NCBI GenBank assembly: GCA_003056265.1
Contig: NBVN01000012.1
Location: 1-8,542 of the forward strand
Length of the DNA stretch: 8,542 nucleotides
Direction: 5' to 3'
Source of the DNA: Zestosphaera tikiterensis
GTDB lineage: Archaea > Thermoproteota > Thermoprotei_A > Sulfolobales > NBVN01
Shown here: in pieces, positions 1 to 8,542 of the stretch
How positions within the stretch are numbered: position 1 is the first letter of the stretch
Layout of the letters: every line of letters starts with the position of its first letter
Program-made: the position numbers and the translations under genes
The notes under the pieces: model-generated
Told to the model about the DNA's origin: nothing
The model's database searches: none
What the model saw: the letters and a program-made list of their open reading frames with translations, nothing else

Positions 1-1704
1 CTCTTAAACGAACATTCGACGGTTCTGGTATTCGACGACTTCCACGATGTCAACAAGCAGGTCAAGGAATACATATTATCCCTAGTTGAGAGGATCGAAT
101 ACCCTGCGAGGGTCTTCATAATATCGAAGTTAAAAGAGAGGGAACTCCCCTACTGGAAAGGAAAAGTACTGGATATAGAGGTCAAGCCACTTCCCTCCAA
201 TGAAGCAATAGAGCTGACGAGGAAGCTCTCAAAGGACTTGAGCACTAATCTATCCCAGCACGACATCTTGCAAATAGCCAAGCTGAGCGGGGGGATACCG
301 CTTCTCATACACAGCATATTAAACCTGTATAAGTCAGCAGGACTACCTCTAACAGAATGTGTAAACAGGGTTGTGACATCCTACTATGAGTCGAAAATTG
401 GGGAGGTAATGGATGAGAACGACAAGCTCATACTTGAACTGTTAATCGCCGGCGGTGGGGTACTTCCTATTGAGATACTCTGCAATATACTCTCCCTAAG
501 GCAAACTGCTTGTTTAAAGCGCTTAAATATGCTTGAAAGATTAGGCTTTATAGAGATACTAGGTGAAGATGTTAAGGTTAGGGAGGGGATAGAGGGGCTC
601 CCCAAAGTTGCAAACAAGCCGAGACTAAAGCACCTAGTAGAACTGGTAGCTCTCGCGCTTAACCAGCACCCGGATATCAGGCAGAGGATGCAGGGTCTTC
701 TACTAATGGCCGATAACTGCCTTATAAAAGACGCCATCCCAATCATAGAGAAACGTCTTCTTCATGGTTCGAGCTGGATGACCTGCTGTTTCGGCCTCTA
801 CCATAGCGTACTTGAGAAACTCCAACAATGTGAGGGTCTAACTACACAGCAAAAATCCCTGCTTACAATAGAAAAAACATTAGTAGAAATCACAACTAAA
901 GAAATAGACCTCCGAAAGGGCGTTGATGTAATAAAAAAGCACCTGGTTAGCTTGAGATCCAACAGGTTCCTATATACGAGGGTCGCAGCCCTACTAGCAG
1001 GTATGCTCATGAAGATCGGAAATTTGGACGAGGGAAGAAAGATATTAGAGGAATCAAAATCCTTATTCCAGAAGCTACCACCCGAACTGAAGAAGAAGAT
1101 AGAACCAACTATACTTGCAAGCGATACAATACTGGCATTCTACGAAAACGACATGGAGAGGGCGTTGGATAACTCGATGAGAGAAGCTCAACTTGAGTTA
1201 GAGAAAGATGATTTCGGCAACTACGCTGTCGCATTAGTCCATATAGGCGTTATGCAAGCCTACATAGGTAGAATAAGCGATTTAAAGAAGACACTTGAGG
1301 AAATAGAGGAGGTTTCAGACCTGCTACCAGGAGATCTAAGGGATACCATCAAAGCCCAAGCCTCACCCCTCTCCATATTTACCTCACTATTGGAAGGAGA
1401 TCTTAAGGCAGCTAAGACCAAGCTGGAAGAAGCAAAAAGAAACAAATTCTCGGACACCGTAAAGGGCGACCTCTTTTGGGAAGAGGTCGTCTTAGACTAC
1501 CTCATGGGTAACATAGAATCAGCAAGGGAGAAAGCAAAACAAGCTATCGAAGGAAACTACAAAGGAATCAGCAATGAGGAGCTAGCTCTAATGAAGGCAA
1601 TCCTTGGAAATAAGCTACGTAAAAATGAAGTCGAAAAACTCCCACAAGGCATGAGGTTGCTCTACCAGATAATAGAGTCGTATGGAATCACTGATAGGGA
1701 TTAA
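1..1704 (+). CDS. STAND-type P-loop NTPase (5' end outside window) with C-terminal TPR-like helical repeat array
   Basis: Frame 1 is open from base 1, so the listed TTG at 238 is internal. Bases 1-237 translate to LLNEHSTVLVFDDFHDVNKQVKEYILSLVERIEYPARVFIISKLKERELPYWKGKVLDIEVKPLPSNEAIELTRKLSKD. A Walker-B-like hhhhDD lies at 22-39 (VLVFDD), followed by an RVFIISK strand and a PLPSNEAIEL segment. GGIPLL (289-306) corresponds to the GxP motif of NB-ARC/MalT-type STAND ATPases. A winged-helix-like LKRLNMLERLGFIE follows. About 350 aa of helical repeats then show a recurrent G-[ND]-[LI]-x-x-[AG]-x-x-x-L-E-E pattern (GNLDEGRKILEE, NDMERALD, GRISDLKKTLEE, GDLKAAKTKLEE, GNIESAREKAKQ). Stop TAA at 1702-1704. 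Confidence 0.75.
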   Translation, partial: LLNEHSTVLVFDDFHDVNKQVKEYILSLVERIEYPARVFIISKLKERELPYWKGKVLDIEVKPLPSNEAIELTRKLSKDLSTNLSQHDILQIAKLSGGIPLLIHSILNLYKSAGLPLTECVNRVVTSYYESKIGEVMDENDKLILELLIAGGGVLPIEILCNILSLRQTACLKRLNMLERLGFIEILGEDVKVREGIEGLPKVANKPRLKHLVELVALALNQHPDIRQRMQGLLLMADNCLIKDAIPIIEKRLLHGSSWMTCCFGLYHSVLEKLQQCEGLTTQQKSLLTIEKTLVEITTKEIDLRKGVDVIKKHLVSLRSNRFLYTRVAALLAGMLMKIGNLDEGRKILEESKSLFQKLPPELKKKIEPTILASDTILAFYENDMERALDNSMREAQLELEKDDFGNYAVALVHIGVMQAYIGRISDLKKTLEEIEEVSDLLPGDLRDTIKAQASPLSIFTSLLEGDLKAAKTKLEEAKRNKFSDTVKGDLFWEEVVLDYLMGNIESAREKAKQAIEGNYKGISNEELALMKAILGNKLRKNEVEKLPQGMRLLYQIIESYGITDRD

Positions 1705-2002: not shown

Positions 2003-2127
2003 TCATGGGCTGTAACCCATATCACTCTGTCACATGAAGTCAAGTAGAATCTGCAACATTTTAGGAGGTATGATAAGAAATTCTATAATAGTAAACTTAT
2101 TCTATTGCAACATGTTTTAATCTCAAA

Positions 2128-2140
2128 ATTATATATAATA
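2128..2140 (+). promoter_or_regulatory. TATA-like box for the vapBC cassette (probably a leaderless transcript)
   Basis: ttatatataata is centred about 22-25 nt upstream of the GTG at 2156. No Shine-Dalgarno motif lies in between. Confidence 0.4.
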
Positions 2141-2155
2141 CTTGGGTGTAGTTGG

Positions 2156-2353
2156 GTGTCTAAGGTCATACGTGTACGTTATGAGAATGGTGCTCTCAAA
2201 CCTCTAGAACCAGTAGATCTAGAGGAGGGAGAGGAGGTCCTAATCGCTATTAGACGTGATATAAGGAAAATACTCAAGAAGTATCGAGGGATTTTAGGAA
2301 GGTCATCGATTAAGGAGTTACTAGAGATCGAGGAGGAGGCTCATATTCAATGA
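2156..2353 (+). CDS. vapB: AF2212/DUF104-family antitoxin (VapB-like)
   Basis: From the GTG at 2156 the product is (M)SKVIRVRYENGALKPLEPVDLEEGEEVLIAIRRD... This is the characteristic N-terminus of the small archaeal AF2212-like antitoxins (consensus roughly xxIxAxYENGVxKPLExVDLxEGxxV). The ORF-track start at TTG 2105 adds 17 hydrophobic, non-conserved residues and overlaps the TATA box. The stop overlaps the next gene's ATG (ATGA at 2350-2353). Confidence 0.8.
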   Translation: MSKVIRVRYENGALKPLEPVDLEEGEEVLIAIRRDIRKILKKYRGILGRSSIKELLEIEEEAHIQ

Positions 2354-2802
2354 GGCTAGCTTACATTGATACTAGCTTCATACTCAGCATTCTACTCGAA
2401 ACCGAGAAGAGTGACTTAGCTGAGCAAATCTTAGAAGCATATAGCGACTCACATTTTATGATTTCGGGGATCGCAATTAATGAAGCCCTATATGTTGCTA
2501 CGTATGAGTATTATAGACAGAAAGGCATAGTTAAGGGAGGGTATAGTTTAAGGAGATTAATTTCAAAACAGGGGTATCCTAGGGAAGTAATAGACGCAAT
2601 AGATTCTTTCCTAAAAGACTTGAATACTAAGATAATAAATGATTACTTTGACTACGATGAATATCTTCAAATAATTCAAAATTTTAAGCTACTTCCTAAT
2701 GATGCACAAATAGCTTTAACATGTAAGCACTACGGCATAAACACTATTCTGACTTTCGACGAGGACTTCAAGAGGATTCCTTGGCTAAGAGTTGCACCCT
2801 AG
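2350..2802 (+). CDS. vapC: PIN-domain ribonuclease toxin (VapC family)
   Basis: The PIN acidic residues are all present: MRLAYIDTS (Asp7), INEAL (Glu), LLPNDAQIAL (Asp) and LTFDEDF (Asp). It has a 4-bp ATGA overlap with the upstream antitoxin gene, the classic type II TA architecture. Confidence 0.85.
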   Translation: MRLAYIDTSFILSILLETEKSDLAEQILEAYSDSHFMISGIAINEALYVATYEYYRQKGIVKGGYSLRRLISKQGYPREVIDAIDSFLKDLNTKIINDYFDYDEYLQIIQNFKLLPNDAQIALTCKHYGINTILTFDEDFKRIPWLRVAP

Positions 2803-2925: not shown

Positions 2926-3003
2926 TGGCGGGCCCGCCGGGATTTGAACCCGGGACCTCCGGCTCCGGAGGCCGGCACCCTATCCTGGCTAGGCCACGGG
3001 CCC
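2926..3003 (-). tRNA. tRNA-Arg (anticodon CCG), CCA encoded, no intron
   Basis: The minus strand reads GGGCCCG-TG-GCCT-AGCCAGGATA-GGGT-G-CCGGC-CTCCGGA-GCCGG-AGGTC-CCGGG-TTCAAAT-CCCGG-CGGGCCC-G-CCA. It folds as a full cloverleaf with a 7-bp acceptor stem, 5-bp anticodon stem, loop CU-CCG-GA and a canonical T-arm. Confidence 0.93.
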
Positions 3004-3042: not shown

Positions 3043-4455
3043 TTATTTCGTTAAGGCTCTTATTTTTATTTCGTTATGTAGCTTACTCGCTAGTTTTTCA
3101 AGGCATGCGTTGATTTGTTCTTCGGTGATGAGTTTGGGTGTGTCTCCTCTGTTCCAGACGTATACCTTATGTTTTATGTTTCCGTTTTCTTCTGTTGTGT
3201 GGAATCTATATATTACGTCTGATAACGACGCGTAGACGTTATATGTTTCGCTGTCGTAAGAGCCTGCCCTAACTACTACAGTACCTAGTTTTTTAAGGTT
3301 TAACATCTCATTGATTAATCCGTTCCAGTAGCTTTCCTCTCTTGATATCCTCTCAAGCTTTGCTAGAATGTCTACGCCGTGGAATATCACCATCCCCGGC
3401 TTATACTTATCTATGAGTTCGTACTCAACCATCCCTAACTGTACGTAGCTCAGCCCACATGGATTTAAACTTTTGAAGACTACGTTATCGTTGTTAAGTA
3501 GGTTGTTAATTAGATCCTCGTTTAAACCGGCTTTAATTAAGCTATTGACTATGAATTCCTTAAGCTCCTCAGGCGGGCTTTTATAGCTTATTATAAGCAC
3601 CCTCAACTTATTTAACAACGCAACGCCAACCATAAACGCAATCATGTGCTTAGGCCTGAAGTCCGGAGGATAAGTAACGTAGATTATATTACCCTTAAAT
3701 ACGGTACCTAAATCTAAACATGGAAGTTCCAACTTATCGCGGATTCGCGACGGTATCTCCTCAAGAACCGTAGAAGGTAAAAACTTTAAACCAACGCCGG
3801 AAGCTATAGTATAAGGCATCCTAGCTACGGAAACCTCAGCGTTTCTAACCTTACCAACCTCAAGAGTTCTACTAATGAAATCCCTCTCAAGCCCAACCTT
3901 TAAAAACAACACCACATCAGCAACGAACTCTAACTCACCTAAATCAACTTCATTAACATGCCTAGGCACCTCAACCAACAAAACAACAACTCCGTTAATG
4001 AGGTGAGGGATTTCAGCAAAGAAGTTCTGCAGGAACGCCCTCTCACTAACTTTACCTCCGAAGACCTTAAGTAAGGGCGTTATAGAATCAACAACTACTA
4101 CTTGAGGCTTTACCTCAGCTATCTTTGTAGAGATAGACTCAACTACGTCGGACACGGAATCCGCCTCAGCTATTAAAGGTAGCTTAACGAAGTGAAGTAA
4201 ACCCCTACCCTCAATCCCCTCTAAATCTATACCTAAATTCCTCATGTTAGCGTAAAGTTTTAATTTATCCTCCTGTAGGGAAACGTATAAACACTTCAAA
4301 CCTGCTAAAGCGTTCGCATAGCAAATACTTGAAGCTAAGGTTGTTTTACCAGCGCCAGCATGCCCAGCTATAACAACTAAGGAGTTCGGAGTTAAAGCGT
4401 TATGAAGGATCTTATCAAGGTGTTCAACACCCCAAGAAAGGACTTTATTTGCCAT
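3043..4455 (-). CDS. Two-domain KaiC/RecA-superfamily ATPase: active N-terminal domain, degenerate C-terminal domain
   Basis: The preferred start is the ATG at 4455 (MANKVLSWGVEHLDKIL...). GGAGGTG lies 8 nt upstream (plus-strand cacctcc, 4464-4470), with A/T-rich TATA-like sequence beyond it. The N-domain has Walker A GHAGAGKT (4342-4365), a KaiC-like SLQED, Walker B VVVVDS and ELEFVADVVLFL. The C-domain (~aa 255-470) keeps the fold signatures (VIFHGVD, SLSDVIYRF). Where the P-loop should be it reads IIYVTYPPDFRPKHMIAF, with no GxxGxGKT. Confidence 0.85.
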   Translation of the reverse strand: MANKVLSWGVEHLDKILHNALTPNSLVVIAGHAGAGKTTLASSICYANALAGLKCLYVSLQEDKLKLYANMRNLGIDLEGIEGRGLLHFVKLPLIAEADSVSDVVESISTKIAEVKPQVVVVDSITPLLKVFGGKVSERAFLQNFFAEIPHLINGVVVLLVEVPRHVNEVDLGELEFVADVVLFLKVGLERDFISRTLEVGKVRNAEVSVARMPYTIASGVGLKFLPSTVLEEIPSRIRDKLELPCLDLGTVFKGNIIYVTYPPDFRPKHMIAFMVGVALLNKLRVLIISYKSPPEELKEFIVNSLIKAGLNEDLINNLLNNDNVVFKSLNPCGLSYVQLGMVEYELIDKYKPGMVIFHGVDILAKLERISREESYWNGLINEMLNLKKLGTVVVRAGSYDSETYNVYASLSDVIYRFHTTEENGNIKHKVYVWNRGDTPKLITEEQINACLEKLASKLHNEIKIRALTK

Positions 4456-4504
4456 GTACACAACACCTCCATATATAGATTTAAAAATAACATAAAAATT
4501 TTTC

Positions 4505-4537
4505 ACTCTTAACCTACTTAACATGTGGTTAAAGAGT
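4505..4537. promoter_or_regulatory. Imperfect inverted repeat in the divergent promoter region (candidate operator)
   Basis: actcttaacc (4505-4514), a 12-nt spacer (tacttaacatgt) and ggttaaagagt (4527-4537). The arms are complementary apart from one extra base. It lies in the 164-bp A/T-rich gap between the KaiC-like gene and the LuxE-like gene. Confidence 0.3.
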
Positions 4538-4619
4538 TGAAGGATAAAATAACTACGGCGATCGTTTAAATAAGTAAAAAATAAAAAGTCGAACTATAAT
4601 TACTCTTAGTAACTCGCCG

Positions 4620-5903
4620 GTGTTGAGAATGGGTGAGGTCTTACCTACGTTAGGTGAGATACTAGAGTTAGCTCAGAAGAGTAAGTTATTAAATGATCCA
4701 TACGTTAAGAGAGTCTACGAGCTTTCAAGCGATACGTCATTATTTAGTAAGTCTCCAGACTGGCTTGAATCATTGCGTAAGTCACTTTTAAGAGATGCCC
4801 TACAGTTCTTCACACGTCATAGCAGGTTTTACGAAGAACTCCTGAGGAAACTTGAGATAGATCCTAAAGCCGCTGAGTTGGAGGACCTTAAGAAATTAGC
4901 CGTACCTTCGGATATGCTGCGTGGTGAAGGATATAAGAAGTTCTTAATAGATGACGTTGATGAAGGTGGTAAGGTATTCTCATCCAGCGGCACCACAGGA
5001 AACACTCCAGTTAAGGTTTATAGAAGCCCTATAGAGTTAGCTATGATGACTAAAGCTAATACAGCCCTCTTTGAGTATGTCTACGGTGGGGAGCTTAAAG
5101 AAGGTCGTGGGCTTGCTTTATTCTTAGCCGCTGAAGAGTTAAGAAATAGGCTTAACTTCGTAGCGTTTGTTGATTTAGCACTTCAAGGTAAGAAGATAAA
5201 GCTACTCTATGGTATGGACTTAGTTGAGGGAAGTACGGGAGGTTCGCAGTGGCAGAAGTTAGTACCGAATAAGAAGAGGATCGTGGAATTCCTAAAGAGT
5301 AAGGAGGAACCTAAGCTACTTTTCACAGCTCCAGCTGGGGTCTACCTTCTAGCCAAGCAGTACGAATCTTTAAATGCGTTTTCAAGACTCCTATATAAGT
5401 TAATGACTGGAACACCGCCGGTAAACTTAGGCGCGGGAGGAACTATAGTGACTGGCGGAGGTAGTAAAGGCTTTAGCGACATACCACCCTACGATAAGAT
5501 CGTTGAAATCGCTAGGAAATGGTTTAAAGCATACGACGTAAACGGAGTTAAGGAAGTCCCCACACCCTTTATGGACGTGTTAGGCATGACTGAAACCCTC
5601 ACCGCCTTAATAGATAAGTATGGAGTAATGCATAAGATCCCACACCCACTACAGCATGTCTTCCTTCTAGATATGAAGACATACGACATCATAGATGCTG
5701 AAGGTAAGGAGGGGATACTAGCTATATACGATCCCCTAGCCATATCCTGGCTTGAGGTATTCATGCCCGGCGACGTCGTTAAATACGTGAATTCCGAAAG
5801 ATACTACGGTAAGGAATTCATCTATGTTCGCAGATTAACTCAAGAAGAGGGTTGGAGCCTTCAAAGAGCTTGCGGCGGGACTTTAGAGGAGATGATGCAT
5901 TAA
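4620..5903 (+). CDS. LuxE-family acyl-protein synthetase (adenylate-forming ANL-superfamily enzyme)
   Basis: FSSSGTTGNTP (4977-5009) is the adenylate-forming phosphate-binding loop. IVTGGGSKGF corresponds to LuxE ITGGGWK. VLGMTETL corresponds to the YGxTE/NQVELNT region. The C-terminal YVRRL...LQRACGG corresponds to LuxE RRV...KGCA. The start is ambiguous among GTG 4620, TTG 4623 and ATG 4629; a tataat-like box at ~4595-4600 would favour a near-leaderless ATG 4629. Confidence 0.75.
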   Translation: MLRMGEVLPTLGEILELAQKSKLLNDPYVKRVYELSSDTSLFSKSPDWLESLRKSLLRDALQFFTRHSRFYEELLRKLEIDPKAAELEDLKKLAVPSDMLRGEGYKKFLIDDVDEGGKVFSSSGTTGNTPVKVYRSPIELAMMTKANTALFEYVYGGELKEGRGLALFLAAEELRNRLNFVAFVDLALQGKKIKLLYGMDLVEGSTGGSQWQKLVPNKKRIVEFLKSKEEPKLLFTAPAGVYLLAKQYESLNAFSRLLYKLMTGTPPVNLGAGGTIVTGGGSKGFSDIPPYDKIVEIARKWFKAYDVNGVKEVPTPFMDVLGMTETLTALIDKYGVMHKIPHPLQHVFLLDMKTYDIIDAEGKEGILAIYDPLAISWLEVFMPGDVVKYVNSERYYGKEFIYVRRLTQEEGWSLQRACGGTLEEMMH

Positions 5904-5915
5904 AGGCGTTCAAAC

Positions 5916-7373
5916 ATGGATTTAGAACCTATATACCTAGGCAAAACCCGGTTAGAAGTTGAGGCAGTTAAGCTGTCGAACCTCACATATAAAGAACCAA
6001 CTATAGATTGGTTGAAGCGGTTCTTAAGCACGGGTGGTGACGTACAAAACAAGCTTTCAAACACTTCAGTTAAGGAAAGGCTTAAGCTAATCGATGAGTT
6101 AGGTAAGGTATGGAGGGAGAAGCTAAACTCGGGCAAGCTTGATCACTTAAAGAAAAACTTAGTTAAAACGACTGGATATAGCGAGAGACTCATAGATATG
6201 GAGTTCAGCCTAGTCTCTGAAGTTCTGAATAGTGAAAACCTCGTTAAATTGCTGGACGCCGGCTTAAAAGGTGGTTTAGCAAGTCTTGAAGGACCTTCCG
6301 AAATAGCTAGTAATGAATACTTAATGAACGTCCCCGCAGGCCCTGTGTTTATAATCAGCTCAGGTAACTCCGTAATCCCTCCTTTAATACCCACCGTAGT
6401 ATCTTTAGTTGTAGGCAATCAAACAATCCTTAAGCCCTCGATAAGCAATTACTTAGCAGTTAAGGAAGTGTTTGAAGGGTTTAAAGAAGTCTTGAATTCC
6501 TACGCTGATGCTTCAGCATATGCTGAAGCCTTACTCGTGAGTTACTTCTCACATAACAGTAAAGCCCTTCAATACCTACTTAAGGAAGCCCCCTTAGGAG
6601 TGGTTAATTACTGGGGTGGTGATCCAGGAAGGTTAACGGTATCTAAAGCCGTGGCTGAGAACTTAAACAAGCCTAAGTTAGTGGTTAACGGCCCCTTAAC
6701 GGGTTTTGCTATCGTGGATGAAGCCTCCGCTAATGAAGCAAACGCTGAAAAGCTAGCTTTTGATATAGTGCTTTACGATCAGCAATTATGTAGCTCCCCA
6801 ACCCAAGCGGCGTTCATAGGGAATTTCGATTCAGCAGTAAATTTCGCTAAACTACTTGGCAAGGCTTTAGATAGGGTTGGGTTGGAATTTAAAATCGATT
6901 TAAGCGAGGGCCATTTATATAACATAGTTAAGTTGAGAAGAGCTTTAGAATACGTTAGAACAACGCGGAATAAAGTACTGTATTCCACAGACCCTTCAAA
7001 TCCTTGGACGTTAGTTGTTAGTGAAGGTAGGTCTACCTTAGCCGAAGTAGCTTCATCTATAAACACCACCGTCTACGAAAGAAGAAGGTTTTTAGAACTC
7101 ATCACCGTAAACGACTTAGATCAGGCGGTGGATTTAATCCTTAATCTACGCGTTAACCCAGCCTTCACTGGAGTCGATAAAGTTCAGACCGTAGCTTTAG
7201 CTGTAAGTAAAGACTTAGAGCTTCAAGCCGTGAGGAAGTTATCGCGGGCAGGCGTATATAGGATCGTGCCCTTAGGTGAGACATACCTTAGAACACCTTA
7301 CGAACCTTACGACGGCTTTAGCCTCCCATCAGTCTTCACATACAGCGTTTACTTCAGGAGGGGATCAACCTGA
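5916..7373 (+). CDS. LuxC-family acyl-CoA (acyl-enzyme) reductase, ALDH-like fold
   Basis: The blocks are collinear with LuxC. FIISSGNSVIPPLIPTVVSLVVGNQTILKPS matches LLAGNVPLSG...IIKTS. NYWGGD matches VAWGGD. VVNGPLTGFAIV matches KFGPKKSLSII. LYDQQLCSSPTQ matches FYDQQACFSTQ and holds the acylated catalytic Cys, here Cys292 (TGT 6789-6791). SRAGVYRIVPLG matches ARSGVERIVESG. The gene starts 12 nt after the LuxE-like stop. Confidence 0.8.
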   Translation: MDLEPIYLGKTRLEVEAVKLSNLTYKEPTIDWLKRFLSTGGDVQNKLSNTSVKERLKLIDELGKVWREKLNSGKLDHLKKNLVKTTGYSERLIDMEFSLVSEVLNSENLVKLLDAGLKGGLASLEGPSEIASNEYLMNVPAGPVFIISSGNSVIPPLIPTVVSLVVGNQTILKPSISNYLAVKEVFEGFKEVLNSYADASAYAEALLVSYFSHNSKALQYLLKEAPLGVVNYWGGDPGRLTVSKAVAENLNKPKLVVNGPLTGFAIVDEASANEANAEKLAFDIVLYDQQLCSSPTQAAFIGNFDSAVNFAKLLGKALDRVGLEFKIDLSEGHLYNIVKLRRALEYVRTTRNKVLYSTDPSNPWTLVVSEGRSTLAEVASSINTTVYERRRFLELITVNDLDQAVDLILNLRVNPAFTGVDKVQTVALAVSKDLELQAVRKLSRAGVYRIVPLGETYLRTPYEPYDGFSLPSVFTYSVYFRRGST

Positions 7374-8365
7374 AGGTTCTGGTAACCGGCGCTTCCGGCT
7401 TCGTAGGAGGTCATTTAATTGAGGAATTGATTAGGAAGGGTTATGAAGTTCGTGGTATGGTACGTAAAACTAGTGACGTAAGCCTTTTAAAGCAGTTGGA
7501 TGTTGAGATAGCTTACGCAGATTTAACCCAGCCCGAAACCCTCGTTGAAGTAGTTAAGGGTGTTGATGCCGTAATACATTTAGCGGCTTACTACACGTTC
7601 TACGGTAAGAAAGAGCTTTATAGGCTGGTAAACGTTGAAGGAACTGAAAACCTAGCTAAGCTGTCTTTAAAGAACGGAGTTAAAAGGTTTATATACTGCA
7701 GCTCAACCGAAGCTATAGGCCCCGTTAAAAACCCACCCGGAGATGAGAACACAGAACCAAACCCGCAGTTTGAGTATGGAAGGTCTAAACTTCAGGCGGA
7801 GCTTAAGGTCAGGGAATTAAGTCGTTACGGATTAAAATACACTATAGTAAGGCCTTCAGGGATTTACGGTCCGCGAAACGTAGATGACGTCGCGTACTGG
7901 TTCATAACCACGTACGCTAAAGGGGGGTTAGCGTCGAAGATTATAGTTGGGTCTGGTACGAATTTAGTGCAGTTTGCCCACGTTAAAGACGTAGTTCAAG
8001 GGTTTACGCTAGTTCTGGAGAGGTGGGACGTTTCCGAAAATCAAACATATATCGTGAGTGAGGATAGGGCTTATACGTATTTAGAGGTTTACAAGATATT
8101 GTCTGAAATCTTAGGTAAGGAACCTCCTAAATATCACGTAAATCCTAAACTAGCTAAGGCCCTACTCCTCTTCGCTGAGGTCTACGATAGACTTAGAGGT
8201 GGTGAGAACTTCATGTATAGAGTTAAAGTGGTTGACGCCGTAACCAGTGATAGAGCGTATAGCGTAGAGAAAGCTAAGAGGGAGTTGGGTTATATGCCTA
8301 AATATGATTTAAGGAGAGGTCTTTACGAAACGATCGAATGGTACCGTAGTAATGGTTTCCTATAA
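7370..8365 (+). CDS. Extended short-chain dehydrogenase/reductase (NAD-dependent epimerase/dehydratase / aldehyde-reductase-like); start codon non-canonical or lost
   Basis: The frame-2 reading from 7370 gives (L)KVLVTGASGFVGGHLIEELIRKGYEV, with the TGxxGxxG Rossmann motif at 7385-7411. It continues with CSSTEAIG (catalytic Ser region), YGRSK (the YxxxK catalytic dyad) and VRPSGIYGP. The frame is open from 7322 but contains no ATG, GTG or TTG before the TTG at 7427, which lies after the Rossmann motif. GGAGG at 7357-7361 sits 8 nt before CTG 7370, which overlaps the LuxC-like TGA as CTGA. Confidence 0.8.
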   Translation: MKVLVTGASGFVGGHLIEELIRKGYEVRGMVRKTSDVSLLKQLDVEIAYADLTQPETLVEVVKGVDAVIHLAAYYTFYGKKELYRLVNVEGTENLAKLSLKNGVKRFIYCSSTEAIGPVKNPPGDENTEPNPQFEYGRSKLQAELKVRELSRYGLKYTIVRPSGIYGPRNVDDVAYWFITTYAKGGLASKIIVGSGTNLVQFAHVKDVVQGFTLVLERWDVSENQTYIVSEDRAYTYLEVYKILSEILGKEPPKYHVNPKLAKALLLFAEVYDRLRGGENFMYRVKVVDAVTSDRAYSVEKAKRELGYMPKYDLRRGLYETIEWYRSNGFL

Positions 8366-8374
8366 GATAATGCT

Positions 8375-8542
8375 TTAATCAGTTAGTACCTTAATCCACT
8401 TAATCTCCCTTAGGTATTCCTCCGGCGGTTTAGACGGTGCTCCAGTCATGGGGTCAGTCATCTCTTTAGTTTTCGGGAAGGCTATAACTTCCCTTATGTT
8501 GTCGTAGCCTAAAGCTATAGCTACAAGCCTATCCAAACCTAA
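8375..8542 (-). CDS. C-terminal end of a class II aminoacyl-tRNA synthetase with a bacterial-type AspRS-like tail (5' part outside window)
   Basis: The minus-strand frame open to the window edge reads [55 protein letters not shown]-stop (TAA = plus-strand tta, 8375-8377). It matches class II motif 3 and the bacterial AspRS tail pattern FGLDRLxMLLxGxDNIRDVIAFPKTxxxxxLMTxAPSxxxxxxLxELxI. It is convergent with the SDR gene, and the two stops are 9 bp apart. Confidence 0.65.

Follow-up and report, generated by a model that had tools for sequence, protein, structure and literature searches.

To our knowledge, the LuxC/LuxE system is the only well-understood route by which a free carboxylic acid is reduced via thioesters on protein cysteines, and nearly all work on it concerns luminous bacteria, where its substrate is myristate. 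The LuxC-LuxE complex analyzed by cryogenic electron microscopy (cryo-EM) showed that LuxE holds its catalytic lysine, Lys238, in an internal loop (234-GGGWK-238), has an Arg354/Arg355 pair for which R354A and R355A mutant data were given and, unlike coenzyme A (CoA) ligases, lacks the ANL C-terminal subdomain (PMC9157457). The acyl group is bound to Cys364 of a flexible LuxE tail (TRxxKGCxLS, approximately 20 residues), which moves it by more than 30 Å to LuxC, an enzyme that accepts acyl-CoA as well (PMC9157457). Non-luminous pairs of LuxC/LuxE homologues have also been reported, for example in the flagellin glycosylation islands of Aeromonas and Enterobacteriaceae (PMC7874193; PMC4875605), and one characterized archaeal route to fatty alcohols uses FcrA, which derives from HMG-CoA reductase (PMC11948995). 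Here, we analyzed a stretch of 8,542 nt from Zestosphaera tikiterensis (contig NBVN01000012.1), hereafter the window, which carries a three-gene module on its forward strand: a LuxE-like gene (4629-5903), a LuxC-like gene (5916-7373) and a gene for a short-chain dehydrogenase/reductase (SDR) of the extended type (7370-8365). Judging from sequence comparisons, it is fairly probable that this trio is a self-contained unit of the LuxE/LuxC type for carboxylate reduction, which would convert an acid into an aldehyde and then into an alcohol independently of CoA.

We determined the distribution of the module by scanning one genome per species in GTDB r232. A close LuxE-like gene was present in 88 species, and the 80 loci listed were all archaeal, with carriers in the phyla Thermoproteota, Thermoplasmatota and Halobacteriota as well as in the Asgard archaea. 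These carriers, many of them anaerobic, included Sulfolobales/Desulfurococcaceae, Thermofilaceae, Methanomethylicia, Brockarchaeota, Bathyarchaeota, non-ammonia-oxidising Nitrososphaeria, Conexivisphaerales, Odinarchaeia, Archaeoglobales, Methanofastidiosia and many Methanomassiliicoccales. Infirmifilum uzonense (CP009961.1, about 670.7-674.4 kb), Methanosuratincola petrocarbonis, M. verstraetei and Odinarchaeum yellowstonii LCB_4 are carriers that have been cultured or enriched or have complete genomes. Clustering of all ORFs (open reading frames) in 90 loci showed that, among the 74 loci with enough downstream sequence, the LuxE-like and LuxC-like genes were adjacent in 70 and the full order LuxE-LuxC-SDR was kept in 65, from at least four archaeal phyla; hence, this arrangement is far beyond chance. 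The pairwise identities of the three proteins were correlated (r = 0.82-0.88), with means of 62% for the LuxE-like protein, 45% for the LuxC-like protein and 55% for the SDR.

The preliminary description of this DNA, made from its letters alone, had pictured three tightly packed co-directional genes with recognizable motifs in archaeal surroundings, with neither LuxD nor luciferase alongside. This outline is borne out, and the triad, whose conservation it had named as a check, is shared by related genomes. According to the ORF listing, 12 nt (5904-5915) separate the LuxE-like and LuxC-like genes, and the motifs SSGTTG (amino acids 119-124), DQQLCSSP (amino acids 288-295), TGASGFVGG, SSTEAIG and YGRSK are all present. 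The nearest relatives of the window are metagenome-assembled genomes (MAGs) of Zestosphaera and Desulfurococcaceae, which places it in an archaeal context. No LuxA, LuxB or LuxD was found among the ORFs of the window, the annotated neighbours of 11 loci or the recurrent neighbour clusters, and the trio is not linked to light emission.

The first gene (4629-5903) encodes a protein of 424 amino acids when read from the ATG at 4629, the start used in public gene calls, which is preceded by GGTG 6 nt upstream; if translation began instead at the GTG at 4620, the product would have 427 amino acids. Single-sequence searches were nearly blind to this protein, and its placement therefore required profiles. 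With a profile of its family, the top match in the PDB was LuxE (7xc6_E, 2.8e-3) over two collinear stretches, followed by PaaK (0.25) over the N-terminus only. When compared with 1.84 billion representative proteins, the same profile retrieved only 80 matches, indicating a tight and isolated family, and the next family outward comprised proteins whose own matches to Pfam LuxE range from 1e-36 to 5e-62. We also aligned 16 diverse archaeal members (alignment A1) with five LuxE proteins positive for PF04443 using hhalign, which gave a probability of 99.7% (E 1.1e-26) over 350 columns, in which the SSGT and GGG(S/W)K loops, the RR pair and the Cys of the tail are in register.

Indeed, the residues on which LuxE depends have counterparts along the whole archaeal protein. 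The SSGTTG phosphate-binding loop of adenylate-forming enzymes (4983-5000) aligns with the SSGT of LuxE and PaaK. Lys280 in the GGGSKG loop (5454-5471), aligned with the GGWK of true LuxE, corresponds to catalytic Lys238; Arg401/Arg402 in VRRL (5826-5837), aligned with the LuxE VRRL, correspond to Arg354/Arg355; and the Cys of the tail motif QRACGG (5862-5879) is located 10 residues from the C-terminus, where it lines up with the invariant Cys found in true LuxE, and corresponds to the acyl-carrying Cys364. All 16 members of A1 share S119, S120, G121 and T122 of the first loop, G276-G278, K280 and G281 of the second, R401 and R402, and Q412, R413, A414, C415, G416 and G417 of the tail. As in LuxE, approximately 120 residues lie between the Lys loop and the RR pair, after which come only about 22 residues, with the Cys-bearing tail of about 20, and the protein has no ANL C-terminal subdomain. 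The AlphaFold2 (AF2) model (predicted local distance difference test, pLDDT, of 84) adopts a compact ANL fold of the PaaK/LuxE class, with a template modelling (TM) score of 0.58 to PaaK; its C-terminal tail has low pLDDT and is predicted to be flexible. Homologues from different archaeal phyla are 58-74% identical and are mostly annotated as hypothetical protein. Together, profile, alignment and model support the assignment of gene 1 to a divergent archaeal subfamily of LuxE-type acyl-protein synthetases, with a predicted ATP-dependent self-acylation.

The second gene (5916-7373) encodes a LuxC-type acyl-protein/acyl-CoA thioester reductase of 485 amino acids that retains the acyl-cysteine, as judged from its alignments. 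Residues 48-468 matched PF05893 (6.3e-36; 124.6 bits against a gathering cut-off of 21) over model positions 2-392 of 401, as opposed to 23 bits (3.5e-5) with the generic Aldedh model. The only match in the PDB was LuxC (7xc6_A), at 1.6e-10 with the single sequence and 1.3e-19 with the family profile. These values bear out the earlier proposal of a LuxC rather than an ordinary aldehyde dehydrogenase (ALDH). With the strict NCBIfam equivalog model for LuxC of luminous bacteria, the protein scored 50 bits, below the cut-off of 750. The motif DQQLCSSP (6777-6800) aligns with YDQQACFS of Photobacterium phosphoreum LuxC (7xc6_A), and its Cys292 is the counterpart of the acylated active-site Cys (Cys296 in 7XC6). 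Residues Y287, Q289, Q290, L291, C292, S293, S294 and P295 were invariant in 16 of 16 LuxC-like sequences. LuxC has a long, hydrophobic, L-shaped cleft that accommodates a C14 acyl chain (PMC9157457); the helix with L107, W111 and M114, the sole part of it that could be mapped, has M, L and E at these positions in the archaeal protein.

Of note, the representative library contains a natural fusion of the two domains (P0130, 884 amino acids). Its LuxE-like domain (5-382) keeps the tail Cys in the sequence RPGCG, and its LuxC domain (422-754) has the motif EQKLCSSP.

The third gene (7370-8365), read from a CTG codon, encodes an extended SDR of 331 amino acids that belongs to the Gox2253/HpnA-like group and matches PF01370 from residue 3 (5e-49). 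An intact catalytic set had been noted beforehand and was found throughout the family, since the Rossmann loop, a Ser or Thr at position 112, the Tyr and the Lys were kept in 67 of 67 sequences. The dinucleotide-binding loop TGASGFVGG (7385-7411) has T6, G7, A8, G10, F11 and G13 invariant; SSTEAIG (7700-7720) holds the catalytic Ser/Thr112 followed by Thr113-Glu114, with S111, T113 and E114 invariant; and YGRSK (7775-7789) provides the invariant catalytic Tyr136 and Lys140. The AF2 model (pLDDT 93) was closest to Gox2253 (3wj7) in both fold and sequence, with a TM score of 0.84 and 33% identity, and this alignment was full-length (4-329), including the C-terminal substrate domain. Gox2253 was reportedly described by Yin and colleagues in 2014 as an NADPH-dependent reductase of C7-C10 aldehydes. 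Among the NCBIfam models, the SDR matched HpnA (TIGR03466, 8e-54), SdmB (7e-37) and OleD (2e-33), all below their cut-offs, and it was weakly similar to thioester-reductase (male-sterility) domains (TIGR01746, 2.8e-24 and likewise below its cut-off; PF07993, 3e-21).

The chemical steps, their cofactor and their order, as we infer them from these homologies, are most likely as follows. The LuxE-like protein would adenylate a carboxylic acid with ATP by means of the SSGT loop, Lys280 and Arg401/402. The acyl group would then move to the invariant Cys on the flexible tail, with neither CoA nor a carrier protein involved, and the tail would hand it to Cys292 of the LuxC-like protein. Reduction of this second thioester by NAD(P)H would release a free aldehyde. 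Finally, and this is the step we propose with the least confidence, the translationally coupled SDR would reduce the aldehyde to a primary alcohol.

Several observations weigh against this scheme. In the 90 loci, no neighbour beyond the trio itself was common across lineages, so that the neighbourhood gave no hint of the substrate. Regarding the SDR, nucleoside diphosphate (NDP)-sugar epimerases and dehydratases were nearly as close in fold as Gox2253, with TM scores of about 0.79 versus 0.84. Moreover, the catalytic Ser/Thr is followed by the invariant Thr113-Glu114, whereas Gox2253 has SSVAA, with Val-Ala at these positions. In sugar 4,6-dehydratases and UXS-type decarboxylases, which have a comparable T-D/S-E motif, the same position is occupied by the catalytic Glu. 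Because the T-E motif resembles that of dehydratases and decarboxylases and is absent from Gox2253, the SDR may catalyze a reaction other than aldehyde reduction, or more than a carbonyl reduction. The aldehyde-reductase role given to it in the preliminary description is, as a consequence, plausible but not secure, with Gox2253 as the best match and the sugar-nucleotide SDRs close behind.

These features would fit an explanation in which the LuxE/LuxC pair works as described and the SDR, instead of reducing the aldehyde, modifies a different functional group of this substrate. Its target could be a keto or hydroxy group beside the carboxylate, as for OleD and SdmB, or a sugar-like moiety, and the product would be a modified aldehyde used by an unlinked enzyme. 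The matches to OleD, SdmB and HpnA are in line with such a role, and gene order does not fix the order of the reactions. On the other hand, only Gox2253 aligned over the full length of the SDR, whereas the sugar-nucleotide enzymes aligned over its N-terminal residues (approximately 1-250). No glycosyltransferase, aminotransferase or sugar-nucleotide gene recurred beside the triad in the neighbour clusters, and the tight coupling of the SDR to LuxC would fit the direct removal of a reactive aldehyde. We consider this alternative possible, albeit rather unlikely, and retain the reduction of the aldehyde to an alcohol as the preferred role of the SDR.

The identity of the first enzyme was also weighed, since its LuxE character is hardly visible to standard searches. 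The window protein had no Pfam match at E≤10, PF04443 included, and only one of 16 relatives matched PF04443 (2.9e-7). The single-sequence NCBIfam matches were weak and covered the N-terminal ~90 residues, with LuxE at 0.027 versus PaaK at 0.006, and FlxY and PaaK were marginally ahead of LuxE. A single-sequence phmmer search of the PDB returned PaaK alone (E 0.16), and Foldseek ranked PaaK ligases first for the AF2 model, with LuxE 7xc6_E outside the top 50. The fold search thus confirms the ANL class of the modelled protein and cannot separate LuxE from PaaK. These results could indicate that gene 1 encodes a PaaK-like acyl-CoA ligase and gene 2 a CoA-dependent acyl-CoA reductase, with free acyl-CoA as the intermediate. 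Such a pathway would agree with the ability of LuxC to use acyl-CoA (PMC9157457) and with the annotation of some family members as phenylacetate-CoA ligase by the Joint Genome Institute (JGI). However, the PaaK equivalog scores were only 10-15 bits, far under cut-offs of 646-700, and concerned N-terminal residues only; the score with the curated LuxE model (NF052244) was likewise below its cut-off (13.4 bits against 550). The full-length match in hhalign was to LuxE, the catalytic Lys is in a LuxE-type GGGxK loop instead of a C-terminal subdomain, and the invariant tail Cys aligns with Cys364. We judge a CoA ligase quite unlikely and favour a LuxE-type protein, as had been suggested earlier, which would act through its own cysteine.

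Another difficulty is found at the LuxC-SDR junction. From the upstream stop to the Rossmann loop, the SDR frame offers none of the starts ATG, GTG or TTG; at 7370 there is a CTG, which forms a CTGA overlap with the stop of luxC. A canonical start appears in this frame only at 7427 (TTG), and its use would remove the Rossmann loop. Automatic gene calls in the loci of two other strains, L001 and L002, shortened the SDR to 302 amino acids. Nevertheless, an NTGA overlap between luxC and the SDR gene was seen at the identical position in 36 examined loci (27 TTGA and 9 ATGA). TTG, a weak codon, is the commonest SDR start in the family, and the CTG of the window is one transition away from it. A Shine-Dalgarno-like GGAGGGG (7357-7363) within the end of luxC precedes the CTG by 6 nt, and purine-rich GGAGG or GGTG motifs occupy the same junction position in relatives. 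The CTG was kept in three strains, namely the window, L001 (99.6% nucleotide identity) and L002 (98.7%). All three genes were under purifying selection between strains; for the SDR, this is shown by 10 synonymous versus 2 non-synonymous codon changes between the window and L002. Translation of the SDR in the window most likely starts from CUG, as suggested by these sequence features, and is perhaps coupled to luxC termination by termination-reinitiation. Thus, of the 4-nt overlap described at first, the overlap itself is real in the family, but the start in the window is a CTG and not a canonical codon. Decay of the module in Zestosphaera, in which the start would be lost, the SDR not made and only the aldehyde-forming pair functional, could account for the missing start codon and the shortened gene calls but is highly improbable, given an otherwise intact ORF with all catalytic residues, a CTG common to three strains at the usual TTG position behind a strong GGAGGGG, and the excess of synonymous changes.

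As to the substrate of the proposed acid-to-alcohol module, our leading guess, by analogy, is a hydrophobic acid, either fatty or isoprenoid, because the relatives of the SDR (Gox2253, OleD, SdmB, HpnA and the thioester-reductase domains) are lipid-oriented. Four other roles were considered and dropped. A supply of 7-oxoheptanoate for coenzyme B was set aside since the trio is also found in non-methanogens. Butanetriol tetraether backbones and a route analogous to aspartate/glutamate semialdehyde formation fitted poorly with the taxonomic spread, and the ATP cost argues against an electron sink.

The genes beside the trio varied with the lineage; they reflect ordinary synteny or offer weak hints at most. 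In Methanomassiliicoccales, a gene for a MenA-like UbiA prenyltransferase was found downstream of the trio and co-directional with it (L007:13772-15696 and 17-19 other loci, e.g., L030 and L046). The loci of this order also had a convergent radical SAM gene (PTO1314-like, with a weak HpnH match) downstream and often a GrpB gene upstream of the trio. The UbiA and radical SAM genes could reflect synteny within the order or could point to a prenylated product. The trio of Methanomethylicia was accompanied by thioredoxin, glutaredoxin and FTR genes. In Odinarchaeum yellowstonii (CP091871.1; L091:10474-13660), it was followed by a convergent gene for an alpha/beta hydrolase of 551 amino acids and then by an HMG-CoA reductase gene. 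In one Sulfolobales MAG, the LuxE-like gene stood alone between a GH57 gene and DUF58/MoxR genes, with the LuxC and SDR genes approximately 25 kb away (L090:8001-13116, on the contig of L011), directly upstream of an aldehyde:ferredoxin oxidoreductase gene and a ThiS-like gene. The KaiC-like gene next to the trio in the window had been put forward as a possible conserved partner. It was present in only four loci, all from the same strain cluster, and this link was dropped in favour of a purely local neighbour. Comparison with the PADLOC defence-system models returned nothing for the trio.

In the window itself (38-45% G+C), the KaiC-like ATPase gene (3043-4524, reverse strand; PF06745, 1.5e-32) is divergent from the trio. 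It has two candidate starts, an ATG at 4524 that gives 493 amino acids and the publicly called start that gives 470; the PF06745 match was limited to the first ~250 residues, and weak PADLOC matches were obtained (mad8, 3.7e-7). The divergent intergenic region between this gene and the trio measures 104 nt and contains TTTAAATA (4565-4572, forward strand), read from the sequence as a candidate archaeal TATA-like box, approximately 57 nt upstream of the ATG at 4629. Downstream, the SDR gene is met by a convergent gene for a class II (Asp/Lys/Asn) aminoacyl-tRNA synthetase, of which the window includes the C-terminal end (8375-8542, reverse strand; PF00152, 4.4e-6); in the sister strain, the PF00152 score was 5e-35 (L001:6227-6613).

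The left part of the window differs between strains. An ORF open at the left edge (1-1704, forward strand) encodes a winged-helix HTH_24 domain (3.9e-5) with a weak TPR match and had no PADLOC match; its true start probably differs from the listed TTG at 238, the frame being open leftward. On the reverse strand, at approximately 1960-2010, there is a fragment that looks like a tRNA 3' half, with T-arm, acceptor strand and CCA. Over 38 nt, it shares 82% identity with the 3' part of the tRNA-Arg located about 950 nt away, and neither ARAGORN nor Rfam called it as a tRNA. Genes for an AF2212-like antitoxin (2105-2353, forward strand; PF01954, 1.6e-22) and a PIN-domain toxin (2350-2802, forward strand; PF01850, 4.5e-18) overlap by 4 nt and form a VapBC-type pair between this fragment and the tRNA-Arg(CCG) gene (2926-3003, reverse strand). 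The fragment may be an att-site remnant that brackets the toxin-antitoxin pair. The match between the window and the 99.6% identical sister strain ended abruptly at 2908, 18 nt past the 3' end of tRNA-Arg, and positions 1-2907 were absent from L001 (comparison with L001:1-760). This suggests that the part of the window left of 2908 is a strain-variable region abutting a tRNA, the pattern expected of an integrated element.

In our literature search, we found no paper on the archaeal LuxCE family, on the fixed LuxE-LuxC-SDR trio or on its product. The enzymology is of a known kind, since LuxC/LuxE homologues have been reported outside luminous bacteria (PMC7874193; PMC4875605). What is gained here is a sharply defined archaeal version of LuxE/LuxC with a third reductase, distributed in some 88 species at 55-75% identity and with a first enzyme labelled hypothetical protein almost everywhere. 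That a module with such an ATP cost is so strongly conserved speaks for a product that is specific and important, and identifying this product could bring to light an archaeal precursor of a lipid or cofactor that is so far missing. The trio could also yield thermostable, carrier-free acid-to-alcohol enzymes for biocatalysis. A bolder proposal, which we regard as doubtful, is that the trio is a dedicated archaeal pathway to a long-chain (fatty or isoprenoid) aldehyde or alcohol serving as an unrecognized lipid or cofactor building block in anaerobic archaea. If true, this building block would be found in Odinarchaeia (Asgard), Bathyarchaeia and methyl-reducing methanogens, among others. It would then represent a third archaeal route to fatty alcohols, independent of CoA and acyl carrier protein (ACP), beside the haloarchaeal FcrA derived from HMG-CoA reductase, and it would bear on the extent of acyl-derived lipids in archaea, the so-called lipid divide.

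Among the known systems, the LuxC-LuxE pair of P. phosphoreum (7XC6; PF05893 and PF04443) offers the closest comparison. Both systems consist of two proteins, an adenylating enzyme free of the ANL subdomain and a reductase of the ALDH fold, and the archaeal pair keeps the SSGT loop, the Lys of GGGxK, the RR pair, the relay Cys and the LuxC acyl-Cys. Gene adjacency is common to both, and the two domains also occur naturally fused (P0130). In contrast, the archaeal hosts are non-luminous, neither the window nor the related loci examined contained LuxA, LuxB or LuxD, and the gene order is E-C instead of the C..E of lux. The archaeal LuxE-like protein is about 50 residues longer than LuxE and too divergent to be detected by PF04443, its tail reads QRACGGT(L)EEMM where LuxE has TRxxKGCxLS, and the archaeal operon adds an SDR. 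The pairs of the flagellin islands similarly place LuxC/LuxE outside bioluminescence, where they presumably supply an aldehyde or acyl group to biosynthesis. However, these pairs lie within larger glycan/fatty-acid islands, whereas the archaeal trio stands by itself, with no neighbours conserved around it. The archaeal LuxE-like proteins also form a separate tight family, with the 80 matches mentioned above.

The other systems share parts of the proposed chemistry or of the folds. Carboxylic acid reductases (CAR; A-PCP-R) and fatty acyl reductases (FAR; NAD_binding_4) would be analogous in the ATP activation of a carboxylate, the thioester and the reduction by NAD(P)H, and the archaeal SDR weakly resembles thioester-reductase domains. 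They differ in that the archaeal thioester is predicted to be on protein cysteines, with no PP-binding (phosphopantetheine carrier) domain found in any of the three proteins by Pfam scans, and in that the reductase predicted to cleave it has an ALDH fold and not an SDR fold. PaaK phenylacetate-CoA ligases have in common with the LuxE-like protein a compact ANL fold and an N-terminal region with the SSGTTG loop, but they use CoA and carry their catalytic Lys on a C-terminal subdomain, whereas the archaeal protein has an internal Lys loop and a Cys tail. With Gox2253 (3WJ7), HpnA, OleD and SdmB, the archaeal SDR shares the extended-SDR Rossmann fold and the S/T-Y-K catalytic residues; it differs from the Gox2253/HpnA group in that the archaeal SDRs fall below every NCBIfam equivalog cut-off and have T-E where Gox2253 has V-A. 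Finally, the trio is unrelated to the HMG-CoA reductase-derived FcrA and, if our reading is correct, would bring the protein-cysteine chemistry of LuxE and LuxC together with an SDR in a single archaeal operon.

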